A stretch of 64,000 bases of DNA from Candidatus Poseidoniales archaeon (GTDB lineage Archaea; Thermoplasmatota; Poseidoniia; Poseidoniales; Poseidoniaceae). The stretch is taken from assembly GCA_038146705.1 (NCBI GenBank), contig JAYQSB010000003.1, positions 2,968 to 66,967 on the forward strand, read 5' to 3'. The notes under the pieces are model-generated. The model was not told the DNA's origin and did no database searches. It saw nothing but the letters and a program-made list of their open reading frames with translations. How positions within the stretch are numbered: position 1 is the first letter of the stretch; the number at the start of each line of letters is the position of its first letter. Below, one piece after another: positions 3,430 through 36,879 of this stretch. The translations under genes were made by a program, and so were the position numbers.

Positions 3430-3460
3430 TTATCGATTATACCTCGAATGAGGTTTTGAC

Positions 3461-4573
3461 ATGGCGAATACAGATTATTATCAAGGCTTCACAAAATCAA
3501 TGGTCAAGAAATTGACAAAAACAAGAGAAGCCCGTCAGGGAGATCCGTTGTACAAACGAAGAAATTCCCGGACTTCTAGAGTGCTAATTCAATATGAGAT
3601 GTTCAAGAATCTTGAAACTGATCATTTAAACAAATACAAAAAAGGATATGTTGTTGTTCTCACCCCAAAAGAATACTTTGAATCTAAAGATACACCTAAA
3701 ACTGATCTGGATTCCAGAATAGAATTGGGAAAGAATGCCATTGTCTATTACCAATTAGATGATGAGGATTGGGACAACCTCCCTATTCAAAATGATTGGA
3801 TCCAGGTTGTAGAAAAATCAAGTGCAAAAGGAGATTGGTCGGGCCATTTTGCAGTCAATATTACAAATGCGACACCGAAGAAGAAATCATTTATTGTTCG
3901 AAAAGATGAAACTAAAGATCACAATAGCTTCAAATGGATGAAGAGAAAAGTGAAAAATTTGAAACGGAGAGTTGACAATGGGCTTGGAGGAAAAGGCTTA
4001 GGGAATTATGATTTTGACTATTGTGATGAAGATACCCTTGAAAAAACATTATTTCAATTAGCATATTATTTCTGGAATATGAAGGGTATTAATGATGTTT
4101 TAGTTAAGGAATATGACAACGGTATTGGGTTTGGGCAAAATGGTCAAATAGATAAGAATAACATGACAAAACCTAAGTTCAAAACATGGTTGAAAGAATC
4201 CAAAGAGGCAGTGGAAAAATATGTACAAAAACATAACCTTGACGATAAGAAAAAATTAGAAGAAAGTAGAATTTTTAGAAATGGAAAAGTCGTTTGTCCT
4301 CTATGCTTACAACCGATGAAGGCGGAAGATTTGACATCGGTTATTGAACAAGACCTTGGGCGCACCAGTGCAGGACAAACAATTACCTCTATTGTTTTAA
4401 TGCACATCAATCCACTGAGGCCAGGAGAATTTAATCATAGACCATTCAACTTAGGTTGGGGACATAAGTGGTGCAATACGATTCAAGAGAATTTACAGAT
4501 TGATGAAACCCTAAGTGAATTGGCTAAAATTTTGAAGTCAAACGATTGGAATGTTAAAGAACCCAAGAAATAA
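3461..4573 (+). CDS. HNH / His-Me finger endonuclease-like protein, candidate restriction endonuclease; N-terminal ~275 aa unassigned
   Basis: The C-terminus reads CPLC, then about 30 aa, then LMHINPLRPGEFNHRPFNLGWGHKWCN. This matches the HNH pattern CxxC...(D/E)HIxP...N...NLxx..HxxC. A GAGGT Shine-Dalgarno-like sequence lies 8 nt upstream of the ATG. The gene is AT-rich and convergent with a methyltransferase gene. Confidence 0.55.
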   Translation: MANTDYYQGFTKSMVKKLTKTREARQGDPLYKRRNSRTSRVLIQYEMFKNLETDHLNKYKKGYVVVLTPKEYFESKDTPKTDLDSRIELGKNAIVYYQLDDEDWDNLPIQNDWIQVVEKSSAKGDWSGHFAVNITNATPKKKSFIVRKDETKDHNSFKWMKRKVKNLKRRVDNGLGGKGLGNYDFDYCDEDTLEKTLFQLAYYFWNMKGINDVLVKEYDNGIGFGQNGQIDKNNMTKPKFKTWLKESKEAVEKYVQKHNLDDKKKLEESRIFRNGKVVCPLCLQPMKAEDLTSVIEQDLGRTSAGQTITSIVLMHINPLRPGEFNHRPFNLGWGHKWCNTIQENLQIDETLSELAKILKSNDWNVKEPKK

Positions 4574-4592
4574 TTAGAGTGGAATTTTCATT

Positions 4593-7280
4593 CTAGAATA
4601 ATTTTTGCTGATGTGTCCCGTTGTCATTCAACGTTGATGCAATCGGTTCTGAGAAGCTATCTATCCTTCCCGCCCGTCGTTTTGATAATTCAAAATAATT
4701 CACATCCATTTCGATACCGATACCTTTCCTGCCCATGTTCCTAGCAACAATAGCTGTGGTTCCCGAACCTGAAAACGGGTCAAGGACAATTTCACCTTTG
4801 TTCGTGAAATAGGAAATAGAGAGTTGAGGTATATCCTCTGGAAATGGAGCAGTGTGACCAAATCGATTGACGCCCTTGCTGTCAATTTTGATGACGGGTG
4901 AGAACGATTTGATGTTCGAATCAAGGAGGTTTTCTTCTTGATTCTCGTTTCGCCGTAATTCACCTGGTTTTTTGAAGACGAACATGTGCTCATAACAATT
5001 TGCAGGGCGTTGATAATACGGCGTAAATTTTCCATCGTTTTTATGCCGATTGCTTTGAGTCTCACCTTTGTCCCAAATGATGTTGTCGAGGATTTCAAAT
5101 CCGCAATGTAAGAAAAGCAAAATGGTGTATGCACCGAGAGGTATTCTCTTCTCTCCCATTTTTGAATTCACTATAATTTCTTCATTTCCATACGTGTCCC
5201 CAATATTGTAGAAGAACACGCCACCGTCCTTCAATACTCTGAAACATTGTTCATTGATGAGAAGCATATCTCGAAGGTACATGTACAAATTAGGCCACTG
5301 AGAGTATTCTCTCGCATTGAAATATGGTGGTGAAGTAACTTCATGATCGATTGATTGTTCAGCCATCCCTGCCATGATTTCTGCACAATGTCCATGAAGG
5401 AACATATCCGATGTCGCTGTGTCGAGCATTGGTGATGCCGTTCTTCGTTGCTTTTTTGGTTGACCACAAAATCCATGAGGAAAAATACGAGTCATAAAGT
5501 CAGATTCACAAAAATTACTCCAAGAAGTTGACATGCCCTTGTCTACATTTCTCGGCATTTGGAATTGTTCGAGCGCTTCTTCTGGTTGCAAATGCAAGAA
5601 ATTTCGCTTCAGGTCTTCACACGTTCTCTCAAACACAGCAGTAGAATTCGATTGCACAACGAGAATTTTATCATCTTCGTATGTGTAATAATTTACGAGC
5701 ATTCTTGTGAGATCAAATTCATCAAGTATATTGACAACATCTTTCCTGAACTTTTGTGTTAACTCTCTTGGAATGACATTATTTGGGTTTGAACCCAACA
5801 GCGAATCTTGCATCATATTCGACTTTCTTGAATATCGTTTACCCCGATTTGTTTTACTACGTGAGCCACATAAGTTATTCTTGCACTCCCAACTTCGTAT
5901 ACCGATTTCAGGAAATGAATTCCCAGAAATTTCGAGACTTCCACATTCAGGACAAGGTATTTTTCTATCTTCAAAATCGTTTTTGAAGAAGGTCACAAGT
6001 AAATCGTATTCATTGACCACATCTGTGATTCCTGGTCGTTCGCTGGGTTCTTTTTTCAGAATGAAACAATCTTGAAATGAAAACCCGATATCAATGTTTT
6101 TGAACGTCAGGATTTCCTTTTTCATCTTGTTCTTTAGAACTTCTGATGTAGCGACGACATCTTTGAATTTCATTTTTCCTTTGAGAAAGAGATTGATGTT
6201 TTTCTCATCTTCATCGGTCAACTCGATGTTGTGGTTGTACTCTATCATTTGACGAGCAATTTTTCCACCATTGTAGTAGTGCCTTTCCTCTCTATAATGG
6301 CGAAATTTCTCGCAAAAAACGAGAATTTTTGCATACAGTTCCCATTTTATGTTTTGATTGTTTACCACCACATCCGAAATTTTGATGGTCAATGTTTTGT
6401 GATTTTCAATTGAGGCGTACATCGAAGCAATTATGTTCGTTATTTCATCAATAGCCTCATCCTTCTTTTGATATGGTTTGAAAAATGATTGATCGATATC
6501 CAAATGAATGAGGCCATACGTTTCCGCTTCATTTGGAAAACAAACGGAATCATAATGTTGGGTAAATGACAAAATTGCATTTTCTCGGGACACCATCCCT
6601 TTATCATGACACAATTTTTTCAATTGTTTTTGCTCAGCCTTCGATAAATCTTTTTTGAGGAACTTCGTATTGCTCTTAAATATTTGATGGCACGACCTCT
6701 CTGCATGTTCATTCCAAGCAACCAATCTTGAAAATAGAAAGTTGACATAATCAAACACTCTTTTTGTCTTTCCATCTTTGATGGCTTCTTCCAACTTTTG
6801 TTTGAATTCCTCGACAGCGTCTTGACTTGTCTTGTGTTTCCCAATATATGTCTTCAACGAGAAGCCATTTGTCAATTTATTTGTGCCAACAGCATGAATC
6901 CTGTCTTGTAAATGTGCTTCAATGCGACGAAAATCATCTTCTAAATTGTAATCAAGAACTCGCCTAAGGCGGTCTTTCTCATACCTGCCAAGTCGGATGT
7001 CTCCAGCTTGTTCAATACTTTTGACGACTTTTTCCAAACGTTTTCTGTTGCCTACAAAGGCATCGGTAATGATGCACTCAACAATATTTTCTTGCAATTC
7101 CTTGGGCTTTTCATCAAGCTCCGGAAGTTCAATCGTTGATAGTTCCAATTTGACATGTATTCTTTCTAGAAATTGCTTAATCCAAAGCACAGATTCTTGT
7201 GCAATGAATTGCATATCAACGAACCGCCACCGACTGCGAATAAACTTTTCATCAACAATCCATAGGTTTCTGTGAACCAT
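4593..7280 (-). CDS. Beta-class N4/N6 DNA methyltransferase (PF01555-like) with ~600-aa uncharacterised N-terminal extension containing a zinc ribbon
   Basis: The C-terminal ~280 aa carry motif IV DHEVTSPPYFNAREY followed by motif I VLDPFSGSGTTAIVA, the beta-class order. The extension contains CPECGS...WECKNNLCG, with the CPEC codons at about 5943-5954. The ATG at 7278-7280 overlaps the xthA stop. Confidence 0.75.
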   Translation of the reverse strand: MVHRNLWIVDEKFIRSRWRFVDMQFIAQESVLWIKQFLERIHVKLELSTIELPELDEKPKELQENIVECIITDAFVGNRKRLEKVVKSIEQAGDIRLGRYEKDRLRRVLDYNLEDDFRRIEAHLQDRIHAVGTNKLTNGFSLKTYIGKHKTSQDAVEEFKQKLEEAIKDGKTKRVFDYVNFLFSRLVAWNEHAERSCHQIFKSNTKFLKKDLSKAEQKQLKKLCHDKGMVSRENAILSFTQHYDSVCFPNEAETYGLIHLDIDQSFFKPYQKKDEAIDEITNIIASMYASIENHKTLTIKISDVVVNNQNIKWELYAKILVFCEKFRHYREERHYYNGGKIARQMIEYNHNIELTDEDEKNINLFLKGKMKFKDVVATSEVLKNKMKKEILTFKNIDIGFSFQDCFILKKEPSERPGITDVVNEYDLLVTFFKNDFEDRKIPCPECGSLEISGNSFPEIGIRSWECKNNLCGSRSKTNRGKRYSRKSNMMQDSLLGSNPNNVIPRELTQKFRKDVVNILDEFDLTRMLVNYYTYEDDKILVVQSNSTAVFERTCEDLKRNFLHLQPEEALEQFQMPRNVDKGMSTSWSNFCESDFMTRIFPHGFCGQPKKQRRTASPMLDTATSDMFLHGHCAEIMAGMAEQSIDHEVTSPPYFNAREYSQWPNLYMYLRDMLLINEQCFRVLKDGGVFFYNIGDTYGNEEIIVNSKMGEKRIPLGAYTILLFLHCGFEILDNIIWDKGETQSNRHKNDGKFTPYYQRPANCYEHMFVFKKPGELRRNENQEENLLDSNIKSFSPVIKIDSKGVNRFGHTAPFPEDIPQLSISYFTNKGEIVLDPFSGSGTTAIVARNMGRKGIGIEMDVNYFELSKRRAGRIDSFSEPIASTLNDNGTHQQKLF

Positions 7281-8062
7281 TATTCAAGAGAAAAATCGGC
7301 GACAACTGGTGCATGGTCTGAAACGTCTAATCCACCCTGCCTTACAATGTTGCACGACGTTATGGCAGGGATGTTGTTTGGATTTATCAGGATGTAATCA
7401 ATCCGCCATCCCCTGTTTTTTGCTCGTGCTTGGCCTCTGTTGGACCACCAAGAGTATTCTTGATGTCCTTCGCCATGCATATGCCGAAACACATCACACC
7501 ATCCATCGCTAAGCAGTTTCGTCATCCATTGTCGTTCATGTGGAAGGAATCCCGATGTCTTTGCGTTTGCTTTGGGGTTCCAAATATCGTCTTCTGTATG
7601 AGCAATATTCAGATCACCAACGACAAAAACAGGTTTTTCATGCTGGAGGTAGGGTTGTAGAAATGAACGCCAATCCTCCATCCATTGCTCTTTATACACT
7701 TGGCGCTCTTGTTTACTTGAACCACTTGGTAGATAGGTGTTAATACAGATGCAAGACTCATGCTCAGTGACAAGGACTCTCCCCTCACTATCTGTTGGGT
7801 CGAGGGGAGAATTCATACCGGTTTGCAGAATACTGAATGGTTGTTTTGATAATGTTGCAACACCGGAATAGCCTTTTTTTTCAGCGGGGTGCAAATGGAC
7901 ATGATAACCACTTGGCCATGACCAGTTTGCCGGTAACTGTTCATCTAAGGTTCTCGTTTCTTGCAAGAGGATGATGTCGGCATCGAACGATGAAAAGTAT
8001 TGGTCAATGCCTTTTCGAATCGCCGCCCTTAATCCATTGACATTCCATGTTACAACCCGCAT
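7280..8062 (-). CDS. xthA: Exodeoxyribonuclease III / AP endonuclease
   Basis: VVTWNVNGLRA, LLQETR, VGDLNIAH and SDHAPV are hallmarks of the ExoIII/EEP family. Confidence 0.9.
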   Translation of the reverse strand: MRVVTWNVNGLRAAIRKGIDQYFSSFDADIILLQETRTLDEQLPANWSWPSGYHVHLHPAEKKGYSGVATLSKQPFSILQTGMNSPLDPTDSEGRVLVTEHESCICINTYLPSGSSKQERQVYKEQWMEDWRSFLQPYLQHEKPVFVVGDLNIAHTEDDIWNPKANAKTSGFLPHERQWMTKLLSDGWCDVFRHMHGEGHQEYSWWSNRGQARAKNRGWRIDYILINPNNIPAITSCNIVRQGGLDVSDHAPVVADFSLE

Positions 8063-32854: not shown

Positions 32855-33207
32855 TTTCTCGAACCAAACAGAGAAGTTCTCGATTTTGACACAATGATAT
32901 AGAGGATGTCTCGAATTGGAAGAGGTACTATCCAAACAATCGGAAACCACATCTTGTAGTACCACCGAAGATAGAGCAAGACCCGTATTGCTGCAGCAGA
33001 ACGAATGAATGTCTTACCATTTCGAACCAAATAGACACTGTCAACGCGTTGATGGGCTTCGGAAAAAGTTGAAATCGTCGTTTGACCTTCTTCACTTTCA
33101 ATAGCAAGAATTTGTAAATCCGAATCCGATGTTAACCGCTTTCGAACAAATTTAGAGAGCCAGTGACATAGATTGCACCACCCATCAACAAGAAGTATAT
33201 CGCCCAT
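32851..33207 (-). CDS. DCC-family thiol-disulfide oxidoreductase (DUF393)
   Basis: N-terminal LVDGWCNLCHWLSKFV is present, and the protein is about 118 aa. Confidence 0.7.
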   Translation of the reverse strand: MGDILLVDGWCNLCHWLSKFVRKRLTSDSDLQILAIESEEGQTTISTFSEAHQRVDSVYLVRNGKTFIRSAAAIRVLLYLRWYYKMWFPIVWIVPLPIRDILYIIVSKSRTSLFGSRN

Positions 33208-33216
33208 ACAGCACCC

Positions 33217-33435
33217 TCATTTTTCAAGAATTTCTGTGAGTAAAATGAAGATATCATCTCCAATATCTCTCAATGATTGTAAATTTTCATGTTGAATGAC
33301 AATTGAAATTTCACTTTCATCCCCATGGTCTTCAATCGTGTAAGAACACGGCTGCCCATCCAGAGTGCTTGCAAGAGAAGACACGATTTCTTTTGCCCCA
33401 ATCCATCGAATTTCAGCACTATGCACCTCTGCCAT
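33217..33435 (-). CDS. Small hypothetical protein (72 aa); weak resemblance to KEOPS subunit Pcc1
   Basis: The start was re-picked at M42 of the 113-aa ORF to avoid overlap with hflX. ISIVIQHENLQSLRDIGDDIFILLTEILEK resembles the Pcc1 pattern (beta strand, A-x-D-x-x-x-LR, then helix). This is from memory only. Confidence 0.3.
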   Translation of the reverse strand: MAEVHSAEIRWIGAKEIVSSLASTLDGQPCSYTIEDHGDESEISIVIQHENLQSLRDIGDDIFILLTEILEK

Positions 33436-33484
33436 GAAAGCGGTTGAGGGGTGGGCTGATATGAGACTAACCATTCGTACCTCC

Positions 33485-34840
33485 ATGGAAGGCCCAAATG
33501 CGAATGGCAGTGTCATCGCAGGAAGCGGGGGCGTCCTTCTAGGAGAAGGTAGAACCAATCACGAAGGCAGGAAAGCCCTCCTTTTGGTCCGAGGAGATGA
33601 AGATACCAGTGAGTATGAAAATCTCGCCTCAACAATGGGCATTCAAATTGTTGAGAAAATGATTCAGCCAGGTAAAATCAATCCTGCAAGTTATTTTGGA
33701 GGAGGCCGATTGAAACTCATCCAAGAAACTCTAAACATCAAATCTGGAGCTTACAAACAGGTCAGCCTCATTCTACTGCACACAAATGCGACACCTCGCC
33801 AACTTGTAGCCATCGACCAAATTTTAGGCATCGAGGTGTGGGATAGAGTCCGCCTTTTGCTCGCACTCTTCACCTCTCATGCATCATCCGTTGAGGCCAG
33901 AACCCAAGTCCGAATAGCAAAATTATTGGCCGATCGCACCATTCTACGTGAGGCCGTATCCGTTCAGACCACTGGTGAACGAGCAGGATATGGTGGAGAA
34001 GGTGCAACGGCATTACAGACAATTATTGGCTCGCTCAATCGGGAACTTGCGACATTGAGAAAACGATTAGGAAAACACGCTCACTCCACAGCACTACGAC
34101 GAGAACAGAGGCGGAAGCAAGGTCTCAATACAGTAGGGTTGGTAGGGTATACGAATGCTGGAAAATCATCACTTTTCCGGGCATTGTCCGGGAAAAAAGT
34201 GCTTATTGAAGACAAATTATTCTCAACGCTTGAACCGACATTAGGTCAAATGGAAAAAAATCCAAGAATTCTCATTGCGGATACAATCGGATTTATTGAT
34301 AATATACCAAATGCCGCTTTAGCGTCATTTAAATCAACCTTTGCTGAGGCGTTAGAAAGCGAAATACTACTCCATTTGATTGATGCCTCTGACCAACCCG
34401 AAGAAATCCAAAGAAAGTTTACGACCACAAAAAACGAACTTAATGAAAGGCTCACAGAAACAGGATTTGATCAATCGTTCACGACTATGGTTGTCTTCAC
34501 CAAAATAGATAGAATATCGGTTCAACATACTGCGTTCCTTCGTAGGTGGATAGAGGATGAACAACTCAAAAATGTCCACTTCATTTCTTCAATTTCTCAT
34601 CAAGGAATCGATGAATTACGACATTCAATCTTCCAACATTTATTCGGTTCGTTACAGTCAATAATCGTGAATATTTCATCTGATGGACTGGGACAAAAAG
34701 CAGTTCATGCACTTTATTCAAACGGCTATATCGTGCACAGGAGTGAACATGATGAGCACTTATTCTTTGACATGTGGATATCGGAATCAGAATTAGCGAA
34801 ACTGCTCCATCAATTCCCTCACACGATTGAACACAAATAG
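33485..34840 (+). CDS. hflX: GTPase HflX
   Basis: The HflX N-domain is followed by G1 GYTNAGKSSLF and G3 ADTIGFI. The start is uncertain (33461 or 33485). Confidence 0.85.
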   Translation: MEGPNANGSVIAGSGGVLLGEGRTNHEGRKALLLVRGDEDTSEYENLASTMGIQIVEKMIQPGKINPASYFGGGRLKLIQETLNIKSGAYKQVSLILLHTNATPRQLVAIDQILGIEVWDRVRLLLALFTSHASSVEARTQVRIAKLLADRTILREAVSVQTTGERAGYGGEGATALQTIIGSLNRELATLRKRLGKHAHSTALRREQRRKQGLNTVGLVGYTNAGKSSLFRALSGKKVLIEDKLFSTLEPTLGQMEKNPRILIADTIGFIDNIPNAALASFKSTFAEALESEILLHLIDASDQPEEIQRKFTTTKNELNERLTETGFDQSFTTMVVFTKIDRISVQHTAFLRRWIEDEQLKNVHFISSISHQGIDELRHSIFQHLFGSLQSIIVNISSDGLGQKAVHALYSNGYIVHRSEHDEHLFFDMWISESELAKLLHQFPHTIEHK

Positions 34841-34855
34841 AAGGATGTTGTAAGC

Positions 34856-35788
34856 ATGACCGTGGGAGATGAGGTTGTTGAGCAAACTCCACCAGTCGAT
34901 GATTATCTTGATGATATCATTGAAGACCAACCACTTGTGTTTTCTACGAGTGATGTAGCTCTTTACATCCCTCAAAAGAAATTGCACCCCATAGGTCGTT
35001 CAATCGCTATTTTTGTTATTTGTATATCCGTATTAGGTGCAGCAAATGGAGCAGATTTTGTCGACCCGAATTCTGGATTGGTGCGTGCTGATGAATTTGT
35101 GTATCGGTTAGCATTGACAGCACCACCTGAAAGTGCACAATTTGATGGTGTAATTTACGATGATGATGGGCAGCCATTCGATGGCATGCTTATTCACGTA
35201 TCATGGGAAGAAAAAGATGGAGGAATAAATTCAACCGAAATGGTGACAAATCAATCAGGTGAATTTCATTTTGAAAACCTTACACCAGGCCTTCTTATTG
35301 TGGATATGTATGTTGAGCGAGACGGCTACAAAGATTGGTACACAAATCGTATACTTTTATCTCCACCTGCAATTATTGAACCTATTGGATTCACAAATAT
35401 CGATTTCACGATGCCCAGCCAAGATGAGTTCCAAAATTCTCCTTGCAGAAACGGAGAGTCAAATTGTACAGTTCGAATCATTGACATGACACCAACTCAA
35501 ATGGAGCACCCAATCATGGATCCAAGTGCGGCGAGTGCCTACGTTCTCATCGGGTTTGGCTTTATCGGACTTGCTCTCATCGCATCAGGGTTTGCAATCT
35601 GGGCATTGCTTGGTCATTCAGTCGGTGTACTTCGCATGTCAACCATGTTCGCATTTTTTACTATGGGACATTATTATTCTGCTTGTATACTTGGCCTTGT
35701 AGCATTTCTCTTGACCTTCGCAATACCAAAAGATGCTGACTCCGTCTATCTTGAACATGGAAGCAGAATGTCAATGGACTTATCATAG
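34856..35788 (+). CDS. Membrane protein with extracytoplasmic carboxypeptidase-regulatory-like beta-sandwich
   Basis: An N-terminal TM is followed by GVIYDDDGQPFDGMLIHV...TNQSGEFHFENLTPG (CarboxypepD_reg-like) and three C-terminal TM segments. Confidence 0.5.
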   Translation: MTVGDEVVEQTPPVDDYLDDIIEDQPLVFSTSDVALYIPQKKLHPIGRSIAIFVICISVLGAANGADFVDPNSGLVRADEFVYRLALTAPPESAQFDGVIYDDDGQPFDGMLIHVSWEEKDGGINSTEMVTNQSGEFHFENLTPGLLIVDMYVERDGYKDWYTNRILLSPPAIIEPIGFTNIDFTMPSQDEFQNSPCRNGESNCTVRIIDMTPTQMEHPIMDPSAASAYVLIGFGFIGLALIASGFAIWALLGHSVGVLRMSTMFAFFTMGHYYSACILGLVAFLLTFAIPKDADSVYLEHGSRMSMDLS

Positions 35789-35808
35789 GAGAAGAAGGTG
35801 AAGAACAC

Positions 35809-36879
35809 ATGGACCTCTTAGGCCATACATGGATGCAGCGTCAACTAGGCCAAGCAGTCTCATGTGTTTTTTTGACAAAAAACAACGGCGTTATCGCAGG
35901 AGGCTGGGACGGAGCACTATGTTACTGGGACGCAGAAGGTGGTCAAATTTGGGAAATTACGACCAGCAGTCGTGTAAGTTCAATTCTTGAATACGACGAT
36001 ATGTTTGTCGCCACCAGCGGTCTAGAAGTTGTTGCCGTTTCAAAAAATGATGGGACCATCAAGTGGATTACAGCCCTCGAGGGAAGTTCAGATGGCTTGT
36101 TACAATTTGAAGATTTTATCGTTGCAACATCTTCAACATATGATATTGAACATAACGATTTCATTGAATCAGCAATCTGGAGAATTAGTTTTGATGGAGA
36201 TATTGAATGGGTTCATCGTTTAGATGAGCGACCTTGGTATGCATATGCTGATGATCAGTATGCACATTTCGGCCTAGGTCGTCCGCGTTGTGGCCTTTTG
36301 TCAATTTCTATGGAACGTCAAACTACATCACACACGCCATTCTCAACCGACAGTCCAGTCATGTGTGGGAATTCACTCGACACAGAGCATATTTTTGGAT
36401 TGGCCAGCGGCCATGTGGTGACTGAAACGAACATCGTCCATCAAGCCTTAACTGGTGTTGAATTCCTGTCAACATCGCACGATGGTTTTCTTGTTGGTTT
36501 AGAAAATGGAGATTGCCGTTTGTTCAATCAAACTGGCGATGAACAATGGCAACTGAGTGGCCAAGCGATATGTGGGCTGCTCTCAACATGGTCAAATCCA
36601 TCATCGGGATATGTCTGGATTGCTCGCAAACGTCTCGATGAGGGTGAATTGGTTGTTGTTGATGAGAAAGCCGGCTCCATTATCGCAACATCAAACACAT
36701 CTCGCGTACATTCAATGGTGTCAAATGATGAACGATTGTGTATTGGTTTTGAGGACGGGCAAGTGATTGTTTGGGAGCGAGAAATGTTTCACCGCCGTCA
36801 AAACCAAGCGAGTCAAAACACAGAGATCGACCCCGAGAAAGAAGCAATGCGAGCTCGATTAAGGGCATTACGCAGATGA
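35809..36879 (+). CDS. PQQ/WD40-like beta-propeller repeat protein with basic helical tail
   Basis: Repeated G-x-x-W blade-like motifs occur ([36 protein letters not shown]). No signal peptide is present. Confidence 0.55.

Follow-up and report, generated by a model that had tools for sequence, protein, structure and literature searches.

The stretch of DNA analyzed here, hereafter the window, comprises 64,000 nucleotides of contig JAYQSB010000003.1 (positions 2,968 to 66,967) in assembly GCA_038146705.1 of a Candidatus Poseidoniales archaeon. Its minus strand carries an open reading frame (ORF) of 895 residues ending in a beta-class DNA methyltransferase (MTase) domain, and the question raised by this locus is what the long region ahead of that domain does. 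Since the Pfam family N6_N4_Mtase (PF01555) covers residues 644-867 only, some 620 residues precede it, consistent with the ~600 uncharacterized residues described in an initial annotation of the sequence, which had also recognized the protein as something other than a plain short beta-class MTase. Three functions had been offered there for the module, namely a sensor, a target recognition domain (TRD) or a second effector domain. Our analysis best supports target recognition and speaks against both the sensor and the second effector, as residues 197-567 are a degenerate MTase paralogue. The predicted layout of the protein is as follows:

4593-7280, minus strand: long methyltransferase ORF, 895 residues as listed
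6693..7214, minus strand: all-helical N-terminal domain, residues 23-196; AlphaFold2 (AF2) helices with a predicted local distance difference test score (pLDDT) of ~80-97; without Pfam match
5580..6692, minus strand: degenerate (pseudo) beta-class MTase domain, residues 197-567, from hhalign, Foldseek and BLASTP
6489..6512, minus strand: position of motif IV in the degenerate copy, reading LIHLDIDQ, with TSPPYY deleted
6102..6341, minus strand: ~80-residue helical insertion, residues 314-393, seen as an insertion by hhalign and not present in the short MTases described below
5868..5954, minus strand: Cys4 zinc ribbon CPECGS-x17-CKNNLC, residues 443-471, in the TRD slot after the motif VIII equivalent
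5823..5861, minus strand: basic stretch RSKTNRGKRYSRK, residues 474-486, with invariant positions
5400..5579, minus strand: linker between the two MTase-fold copies, residues 568-627, poorly conserved
4671..5399, minus strand: live beta-class N6/N4 DNA MTase domain, residues 628-870, without zinc ribbon
5322-5336, minus strand: motif IV TSPPY of the live copy, residues 649-653
4755-4781, minus strand: motif I DPFSGSGTT of the live copy, residues 834-842

Searches of residues 1-620 against Pfam, NCBIfam, PADLOC and PDB sequences returned no sensor, NTPase, ParB, helicase or nuclease family, and this agrees with the earlier failure to find a Walker A, ParB, helicase or nuclease motif in this region. 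The whole protein contains a single Pfam domain, and its NCBIfam and PDB sequence matches are confined to the C-terminal 250-270 residues. An AF2 model of residues 1-625, a query that does not include the Pfam-defined domain, was built on an alignment of 87 sequences (pLDDT 86.9, predicted template modelling score (pTM) 0.85). The module had been predicted to be helical; in the model it is not uniformly so, and residues 255-565 adopt an alpha/beta fold. When the model was compared with the PDB by Foldseek, as the initial annotation had proposed, all 13 matches at E <=0.001 were beta-class DNA MTases (TTHA0409, M1.HpyAVI, M.PvuII and M.BceJIV; E 1e-5 to 8e-4, probability 1.0, target-normalized TM-score (TMt) 0.47-0.60). 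The weaker matches were a rotifer N4C MTase, a type III Mod, CcrM, M.MboIIA and M.RsrI, followed by METTL14 and MTA1.

The relationship of this fold to the C-terminal domain was resolved by a group of short proteins. An alignment of the conserved part of the N-terminal module (A3) was used to scan one genome per species, and 71 loci were detected, made up of about 25 long forms (840-917 residues) and about 40 short proteins of 395-460 residues. The latter are complete and apparently active beta-class MTases, as judged from their TSPPYY, GH(S/T)APFP and DPFxGSxT motifs, and those of ~410 residues, such as P0241 from an ANME-1 genome (L044:5455-6681), are homologous to both halves of the long protein. 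In hhalign, the profile of residues 1-620 matched 40 short zinc-ribbon MTases with a probability of 100% and an E value of 2.2e-53, with query residues 197-567 collinear with positions 4-377 of 408 in the target. Similar results were obtained with BLASTP against P0241: residues 397-516 are 42% identical to it over a segment spanning the ribbon (E 1e-24), and residues 628-863 of the C-terminal domain are 41% identical (E 2e-65) with a 60-residue gap located exactly at the P0241 ribbon. A direct comparison of residues 256-620 with residues 621-895 gave three weak collinear hhalign matches (E 1e-3 to 0.1). In addition, the consensus YRxLxNHxTLxIxIxNI of the N-terminal module echoes YRxLKPGGVFLYNIGDI of the C-terminal domain, as GFTFxDCFIL...ELLLxFxK echoes GFELLDNIIWDK...YEHMFIFKK. 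The internal matches are suggestive, and it was the short MTases that settled the paralogy.

The short MTases share the Cys4 ribbon and its RSK.NRGKR(Y/F)S tail with the N-terminal module and their catalytic motifs with the C-terminal domain, and their best PADLOC profile is PDLC03236, that of the long form. In these proteins the ribbon with its basic tail, RYPCPVCGxLKVNGN...SWECKN..C.ERSKSNRGKRFS...WRKD, occupies the beta-class TRD slot, flanked by motif VIII on one side and by the PVIKIN..GH.APFP block on the other. They differ from the long protein in that catalysis and ribbon reside in one domain, presumably acting as a homodimer, and in being followed by an ORF of ~200-250 residues rather than by a BstXI-like restriction endonuclease (REase). 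Neither a Pfam family for the ribbon nor a description of it in the searched literature was found.

The N-terminal copy has lost three elements that the short MTases possess. At its motif IV position, where the family consensus is L-I/V-x-L-N-I-N/D-Q, the hhalign alignment contains a 6-residue gap opposite TSPPYY. The GH(T/S)APFP block is absent, with an 18-residue gap opposite PVIKIN..GHTAPFP, and the position of motif I reads KILVVQSNS and is devoid of a glycine loop. According to column counts over 48-87 homologues, neither the motif IV nor the motif I position shows conservation of residues of a catalytic type. The loss of motif IV, of the GH(T/S)APFP block and of motif I indicates that the N-terminal copy is a pseudo-enzyme and not an active member of the class. 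On the strength of profile comparison and modelling, residues 197-567 are thus best described as a putative catalytically dead duplicate of a zinc-ribbon beta-class MTase. Accordingly, the extension is less novel than first thought, since a confident match to a known domain now accounts for about 370 of its 600 residues.

What the dead copy has retained is the ribbon. The four-Cys element was found as initially described, with the CPEC codons at 5943-5954 and the basic stretch RSKTNRGKRYSRK following it, and in the AF2 model it forms a beta-hairpin (strands 451-458 and 461-466). Ten positions, C443, C446, C466, C471, S475, K476, R479, G480, K481 and R482, are invariant in the alignment of 87 homologues, so that the ribbon is not a chance motif and is under selection. 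The segment containing it (residues 437-516) has a mean identity of 60%, compared with 57% for the active domain. The basic stretch is a probable DNA-contacting element.

The C-terminal copy is complementary, as it retains the catalytic motifs and lacks the ribbon. PF01555 matches residues 644-867 at 1.7e-35 (123.5 bits against a cut-off of 26.7; profile positions 1-220 of 221), the motifs occur in the beta order, IV before I, and TSPPY and DPFSGSGTT are both invariant or nearly so. Its relatives among known structures include TTHA0409 (6.7e-24 by sequence; Foldseek E 2e-15, TMt 0.76-0.78) and MboIIA (TMt 0.82), with an overall TMt of 0.7-0.8. The PADLOC type II MTase profile PDLC03236 (MTase_II, 912 positions) extends well beyond this domain: it aligns residues 244-870 with its positions 264-899 (7.5e-157, 522 bits) and so takes in the N-terminal module except for the first ~240 residues. 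The full-length AF2 model has a pLDDT of 86 and a pTM of 0.88, and the latter value suggests that the predicted protein is one rigid body and not beads on a string. A Foldseek search of the PDB with this model retrieved no chain spanning both MTase copies (query-normalized TM-score (TMq) <=0.23). Conservation is low elsewhere. The helical domain 23-196 has a mean identity to homologues of 23%, is specific to the 840-917-residue long forms, being missing or different in the ~750-residue relatives, and no homologue of it was identified. The insertion 314-393 (helices 338-350, 356-366, 372-378 and 384-394 in the AF2 model) has a mean identity of 25%, and the linker 568-627 one of 10% with 0 conserved columns and a pLDDT of 50-77 around residues 600-625.

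The gene next to the MTase provides a context for these observations:

3461..4573, plus strand: BstXI-family type II restriction endonuclease, 370 residues, convergent with the MTase gene and 19 nucleotides apart from it

This protein matches the Pfam family RE_BstXI at 1.4e-30 (25-bit cut-off) and the PADLOC profile REase_II at 6.8e-40. By iterative search, homologous REase-like ORFs, mostly of ~370 residues and sometimes as two paralogues, were found within a few kb of a long MTase at 17 other distinct loci, while a few long-form loci contain no recognizable nuclease. The initial annotation had suspected that the pair might not be a plain type II restriction-modification (RM) system. The BstXI-family partner, the PADLOC type II profile, the recurrent pairing and the avoidance of a palindromic site argue otherwise, and we assign the MTase and its convergent REase to a probable type II RM system with the predicted target CCN7GG.

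The target was deduced from site avoidance. In the 2.04-Mb genome to which the window belongs (G000), CC-N7-GG occurs 3094 times, compared with ~4780 at other spacers (ratio 0.65, z = -24), which is the strongest depletion among 128 combinations of dinucleotide half-site and spacer. The depletion is seen in all 12 large contigs and with any flanking base; GG-N7-CC is not depleted in this genome. The BstXI specificity CCAN6TGG was considered and rejected, since it is not avoided here (ratio 1.14). For other genomes, the six-base subset CCAN5TGG was counted in place of CCN7GG. Two carriers of the long MTase, G000 and G006, contain 330 and 404 such sites, compared with 863-1163 in four non-carrier congeners of similar size. 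Among five unrelated bacterial carriers, three, all Clostridia, show a spacer-specific depletion of CCAN5TGG of 2.4-5-fold (N5 against N8 counts of 77 vs 185, 51 vs 255 and 25 vs 74), and in a 400-kb sample of one Clostridia carrier CCN7GG was reduced to 0.51 of same-phase spacers (z = -9).

Two other MTase genes were considered as causes of the avoidance. The core PF01555 gene of the genome was rejected as it is present in all congeners, and a second, carrier-specific PF01555 MTase was rejected as it has no orthologue in the Clostridia carriers, which removes the obvious confounder. The latter gene, located outside the window (G000:C11:50602-51516), encodes a beta-class MTase with the motif VVTSPPY, is common to the sister species G006 only, and sits between giant ORFs of 1374 and 1576 residues with no obvious nuclease partner. 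Taken together, CCN7GG (CCNNNNNNNGG) appears fairly likely to be the target of the system. The SPPY motif suggests N4-cytosine methylation (m4C) as the modification, and two close PDB relatives, TTHA0409 and the rotifer N4C MTase, are compatible with it.

From these results we propose that the long MTase is a single-chain pseudo-dimer of a beta-class DNA MTase, whose two complementary copies divide the labor between them, and we regard this reading as likely. The ancestor would have resembled the ~410-residue zinc-ribbon MTases, with catalytic core and ribbon TRD in one domain, and would have undergone a tandem duplication or the fusion of two such paralogues. Copy 1 (residues 197-567) would then have lost motif IV, the GH(T/S)APFP block and motif I while keeping the Cys4 ribbon and basic tail, whereas copy 2 (residues 628-870) would have kept every catalytic and S-adenosylmethionine motif and lost the ribbon. 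The helical domain 23-196 and the 80-residue insert 314-393 would be later additions. By analogy with dimeric relatives, the dead copy may use its ribbon to bind or read the DNA, with base flipping and methylation carried out by the live copy. One composite site would be formed, so that one strand would be methylated per binding event, with the palindrome bound either way round. Were TRD and pocket to work in cis, the observed losses would yield a dead enzyme, yet the gene is conserved beside a nuclease gene. The complementary losses therefore suggest that the active site of copy 2 is served by the ribbon of copy 1, so that TRD and active site would cooperate in trans across the (pseudo)dimer interface. 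A further-reaching version, in which the family is a hard-wired natural proof of the division-of-labor model and a prokaryotic pair of active and dead MTases that arose independently of METTL3-METTL14 and MTA1-MTA9, with the helical parts serving as a ruler for the N7 spacer, falls somewhat short of probable.

Several observations weigh against the proposed division of labor and its target. Family members with different nuclease partners have almost the same ribbon, as do the short MTases, and this fits a non-specific or structural contact with DNA at least as well as the reading of a sequence; its near-invariance points to a conserved contact, which may be non-specific or made to a shared half-site. 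Site avoidance is indirect evidence for the target, and it is uneven: of the carriers with BstXI-like partners, the other two of the five unrelated bacteria show little depletion (G044) or none (G045), and carriers with a two-ORF partner or without a partner show no depletion of CCAN5TGG, so that specificity may vary within the family. In addition, G000 and G006 are close kin and have at least one other MTase in common, and SPPY is a mere tendency of m4C enzymes.

The near-invariance of ribbon and basic tail across nuclease partners and short MTases, which would be unexpected for a specificity determinant, also gives substance to the view that the N-terminal copy is an obligatory structural partner and a non-specific DNA clamp, with recognition lying wholly in the active C-terminal domain. 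We consider this unlikely, as that domain has only ~20 residues where the short MTases have their ~80-residue ribbon TRD, which leaves it little with which to read a bipartite site. Moreover, the carriers that show avoidance all avoid one site, and a half-site that is conserved can be reconciled with a reader that is too. Fused two-domain MTases exist, and the N-terminal module does have an MTase fold, so that it might be thought a second active MTase with divergent motifs, the protein using two catalytic sites, one per strand or half-site. The deletion of TSPPYY and GH.APFP, the sequence KILVVQSNS without a glycine loop and the lack of catalytic-type conservation in 48-87 homologues make this very improbable.

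A sensor or second effector, which would turn the pair into a non-canonical defence system, could still be sought in the helical domain 23-196 and the 80-residue insert, both without assigned function. The chances of this are slimmer again. An MTase paralogue accounts for ~370 of the 600 residues, and no match to a nuclease, NTPase, ParB or sensor family was obtained in Pfam, NCBIfam or PADLOC. In addition, a simple pair of MTase and REase recurs across many phyla, and carriers avoid a palindromic site as classical restriction predicts. The idea that the upstream region is untranslated and that the real protein is a short MTase starting near residue 600 draws on the first 22 codons alone, which do look spurious. 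It can practically be dismissed, given that the frame of residues 23-620 is open, confidently modelled by AF2 and conserved at the protein level in at least 87 archaeal and bacterial homologues. The single-chain pseudo-dimer therefore remains our preferred reading.

The start of the gene was revised as follows:

4593..7214, minus strand: probable coding sequence of the long MTase, 873 residues from M23
7215..7280, minus strand: in-frame upstream extension of 22 codons, probably untranslated, with a conserved GGTGG 13 nucleotides ahead of the M23 ATG

The true start is probably M23, with its ATG at 7214-7212. In L001 and L005, the two closest orthologues, which are 82-88% identical and syntenic, the stretch from the upstream stop to the equivalent of M23 is devoid of ATG, GTG and TTG codons, and a start codon within the extension is seen in this genome only. 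Alignments with homologues all begin at residue 23 or later, and residues 1-26 have a pLDDT of <50 in the AF2 model. P0107, an apparent N-terminal extension of the family, was rejected as a frameshifted assembly of the same locus. While the initial annotation had raised the possibility of a start far downstream, only these 22 codons are trimmed, residues 23-620 being conserved at the protein level. With M23 as the start, the one-base overlap (TAATG) between the ORF and the xth-like gene ahead of it probably reflects an artefact of ORF extension. The real junction of the xth-like gene and the MTase (window 7212-7282) would then be a spacer of ~65 nucleotides with the conserved GGTGG, and probably not a TAATG overlap.

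The RM pair is missing from 23 of the 24 congeners searched and lies in a trough of GC content (0.36-0.40 vs 0.45-0.48). In the non-carrier congeners G022 and G002, the genes that come directly after the xth-like gene are orthologous to genes found ~25 kb away in the genome analyzed here, at window ~32860-36810 (G000:C3:35830-39780) as opposed to the RM region at window 3430-7280. We conclude that the RM pair sits at the breakpoint of an inversion or other rearrangement and reached this genome by horizontal transfer.

As to its distribution, the long-form family is rare yet widespread. A search limited to residues 1-620 returned 95 proteins, nearly all of which are 820-926 residues long and contain PF01555, and among 1.84 billion representative proteins the N-terminal module retrieved only 177 relatives, including ~750-residue forms that share the core 390-545 alone. 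Hosts of the long forms are Poseidoniales, Woesearchaeota, Asgard archaea, Clostridia, Bacteroidota, Patescibacteria and Mycoplasmopsis. The closest relative of the MTase in the window is found in another Poseidoniales genome.

The nuclease genes of these systems show some diversity. The C-terminus of the REase in the window (4330-4540) contains CPLC...H-x-N-P...N...GHKWC, a layout resembling HNH/beta-beta-alpha-Me, and the relatives P0099 and P0100 from Clostridia are without those C-terminal Cys residues. Two adjacent REase-like ORFs, mostly of ~345-425 residues each, are present at L013, L014, L015, L017, L020, L024 and L008, and their pairing suggests heteromeric nucleases. At L007:1829-3419, L012:3657-5193 and L009:7813-9373, a conserved two-ORF pair without Pfam or PADLOC match replaces the BstXI-like REase. 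One of its products has ~300 residues with CxxC pairs and a GID...IQVKTR motif, and the other has ~220 residues and is very Cys-rich. The possibility that this pair corresponds to the alpha and beta subunits of BslI was rejected, since the genomes concerned show no CCAN5TGG depletion. The Asgard loci L011:7836-11120 and L016:7934-11212 encode a long MTase without a recognizable REase, with a tetratricopeptide repeat (TPR) protein upstream and, downstream, an ORF of ~500 residues and a second PF01555-like ORF of 554-566 residues. The short MTases (L029-L072) occur in ~40 genomes of many phyla together with the downstream ORF of ~200-250 residues (e.g. L039:6656-7267), which has a GID...QVK-type motif in common with the ~300-residue subunit at L007, L009 and L012. 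From gene order and motifs, the short MTase and the ORF following it look like an unannotated RM family.

No new mechanism of defence is involved here. The finding explains the existence of unusually long (~840-920 residues) type II MTases in archaea and bacteria, identifies an unannotated zinc-ribbon TRD common to ~40 short MTases, and predicts a CCN7GG specificity for the RM system of an uncultured marine archaeon that can be checked with a commercial enzyme. The single-chain enzyme, being monomeric, would also lend itself to structural studies in the presence of DNA. Since beta-class DNA and RNA amino-MTases have been argued to work only as dimers whose subunits divide recognition and catalysis between them (PMC7544214), a protein in which each half keeps one job would provide a clean natural test.

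Solved beta-class MTases are dimers, and dimerization is held to be essential (Woodcock et al.; PMC7544214). Within a single subunit the TRD and the active site face apart, and in the dimer each TRD lies opposite the active site of the partner; in M.EcoP15I, recognition falls to one Mod subunit and methylation to the other (PMC7544214). The dimers of M.EcoP15I Mod2, CcrM, M.PvuII, M.RsrI, M.MboIIA, TTHA0409, M1.HpyAVI and M.BceJIV have the same fold as the protein in the window. They consist, however, of identical, fully equipped subunits, whereas here the halves are joined and each appears to have irreversibly lost the function of the other. In METTL3-METTL14 and the ciliate MTA1-MTA9, heterodimers of the MT-A70 branch of the beta class, an active subunit is combined with a partner of eroded motif IV that supports substrate binding (PMC7544214). 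The likeness lies in this pairing of an active protein with an eroded paralogue, and METTL14 and MTA1 are among the Foldseek matches of the N-terminal module. These complexes differ in being eukaryotic, in consisting of separate polypeptides, in their RNA or ApT DNA substrates, and in the location of their zinc fingers, which are borne by METTL3, the active subunit, or by additional subunits, and do not occupy the TRD slot of the inactive partner. The 16S rRNA MTase RsmC is likewise reported to be a single chain of two duplicated MTase-fold domains with specialized functions (PMC1934991). This enzyme acts on RNA, belongs to an unrelated family of Rossmann-fold MTases and has neither a zinc ribbon nor an RM context. 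In a limited body of full-text literature, we found no account of a live MTase copy without a ribbon that is complemented by a dead duplicate bearing one, the analogies retrieved being RsmC (rRNA), METTL14 and the pseudo-MTase domains of fatty-acid synthases.

Two RM systems resemble the one in the window in their target or nuclease. M.BslI, a beta-group N4-cytosine MTase of ~912 residues, would match in length the 912 positions of PDLC03236, the profile that the long MTase hits at 522 bits. The site of BslI, CCNNNNN^NNGG, equals the predicted CCN7GG, and its REase is an alpha2beta2 enzyme with Cys4 motifs (PMC4081073), in contrast to the one BstXI-family REase gene found here. The BstXI system (CCAN6TGG) is similar in its REase, which belongs to Pfam RE_BstXI, and in its interrupted palindrome. 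The true M.BstXI is a type I-like M+S gamma-class N6-adenine (m6A) enzyme (PMC4335341, PMC3874165), so that the beta-class fusion described here would represent a different solution for methylating an interrupted site. The system is an ordinary one in so far as its MTase comes from a catalogued type II family, the C-terminal domain is an ordinary beta-class enzyme and the pair behaves like type II RM.

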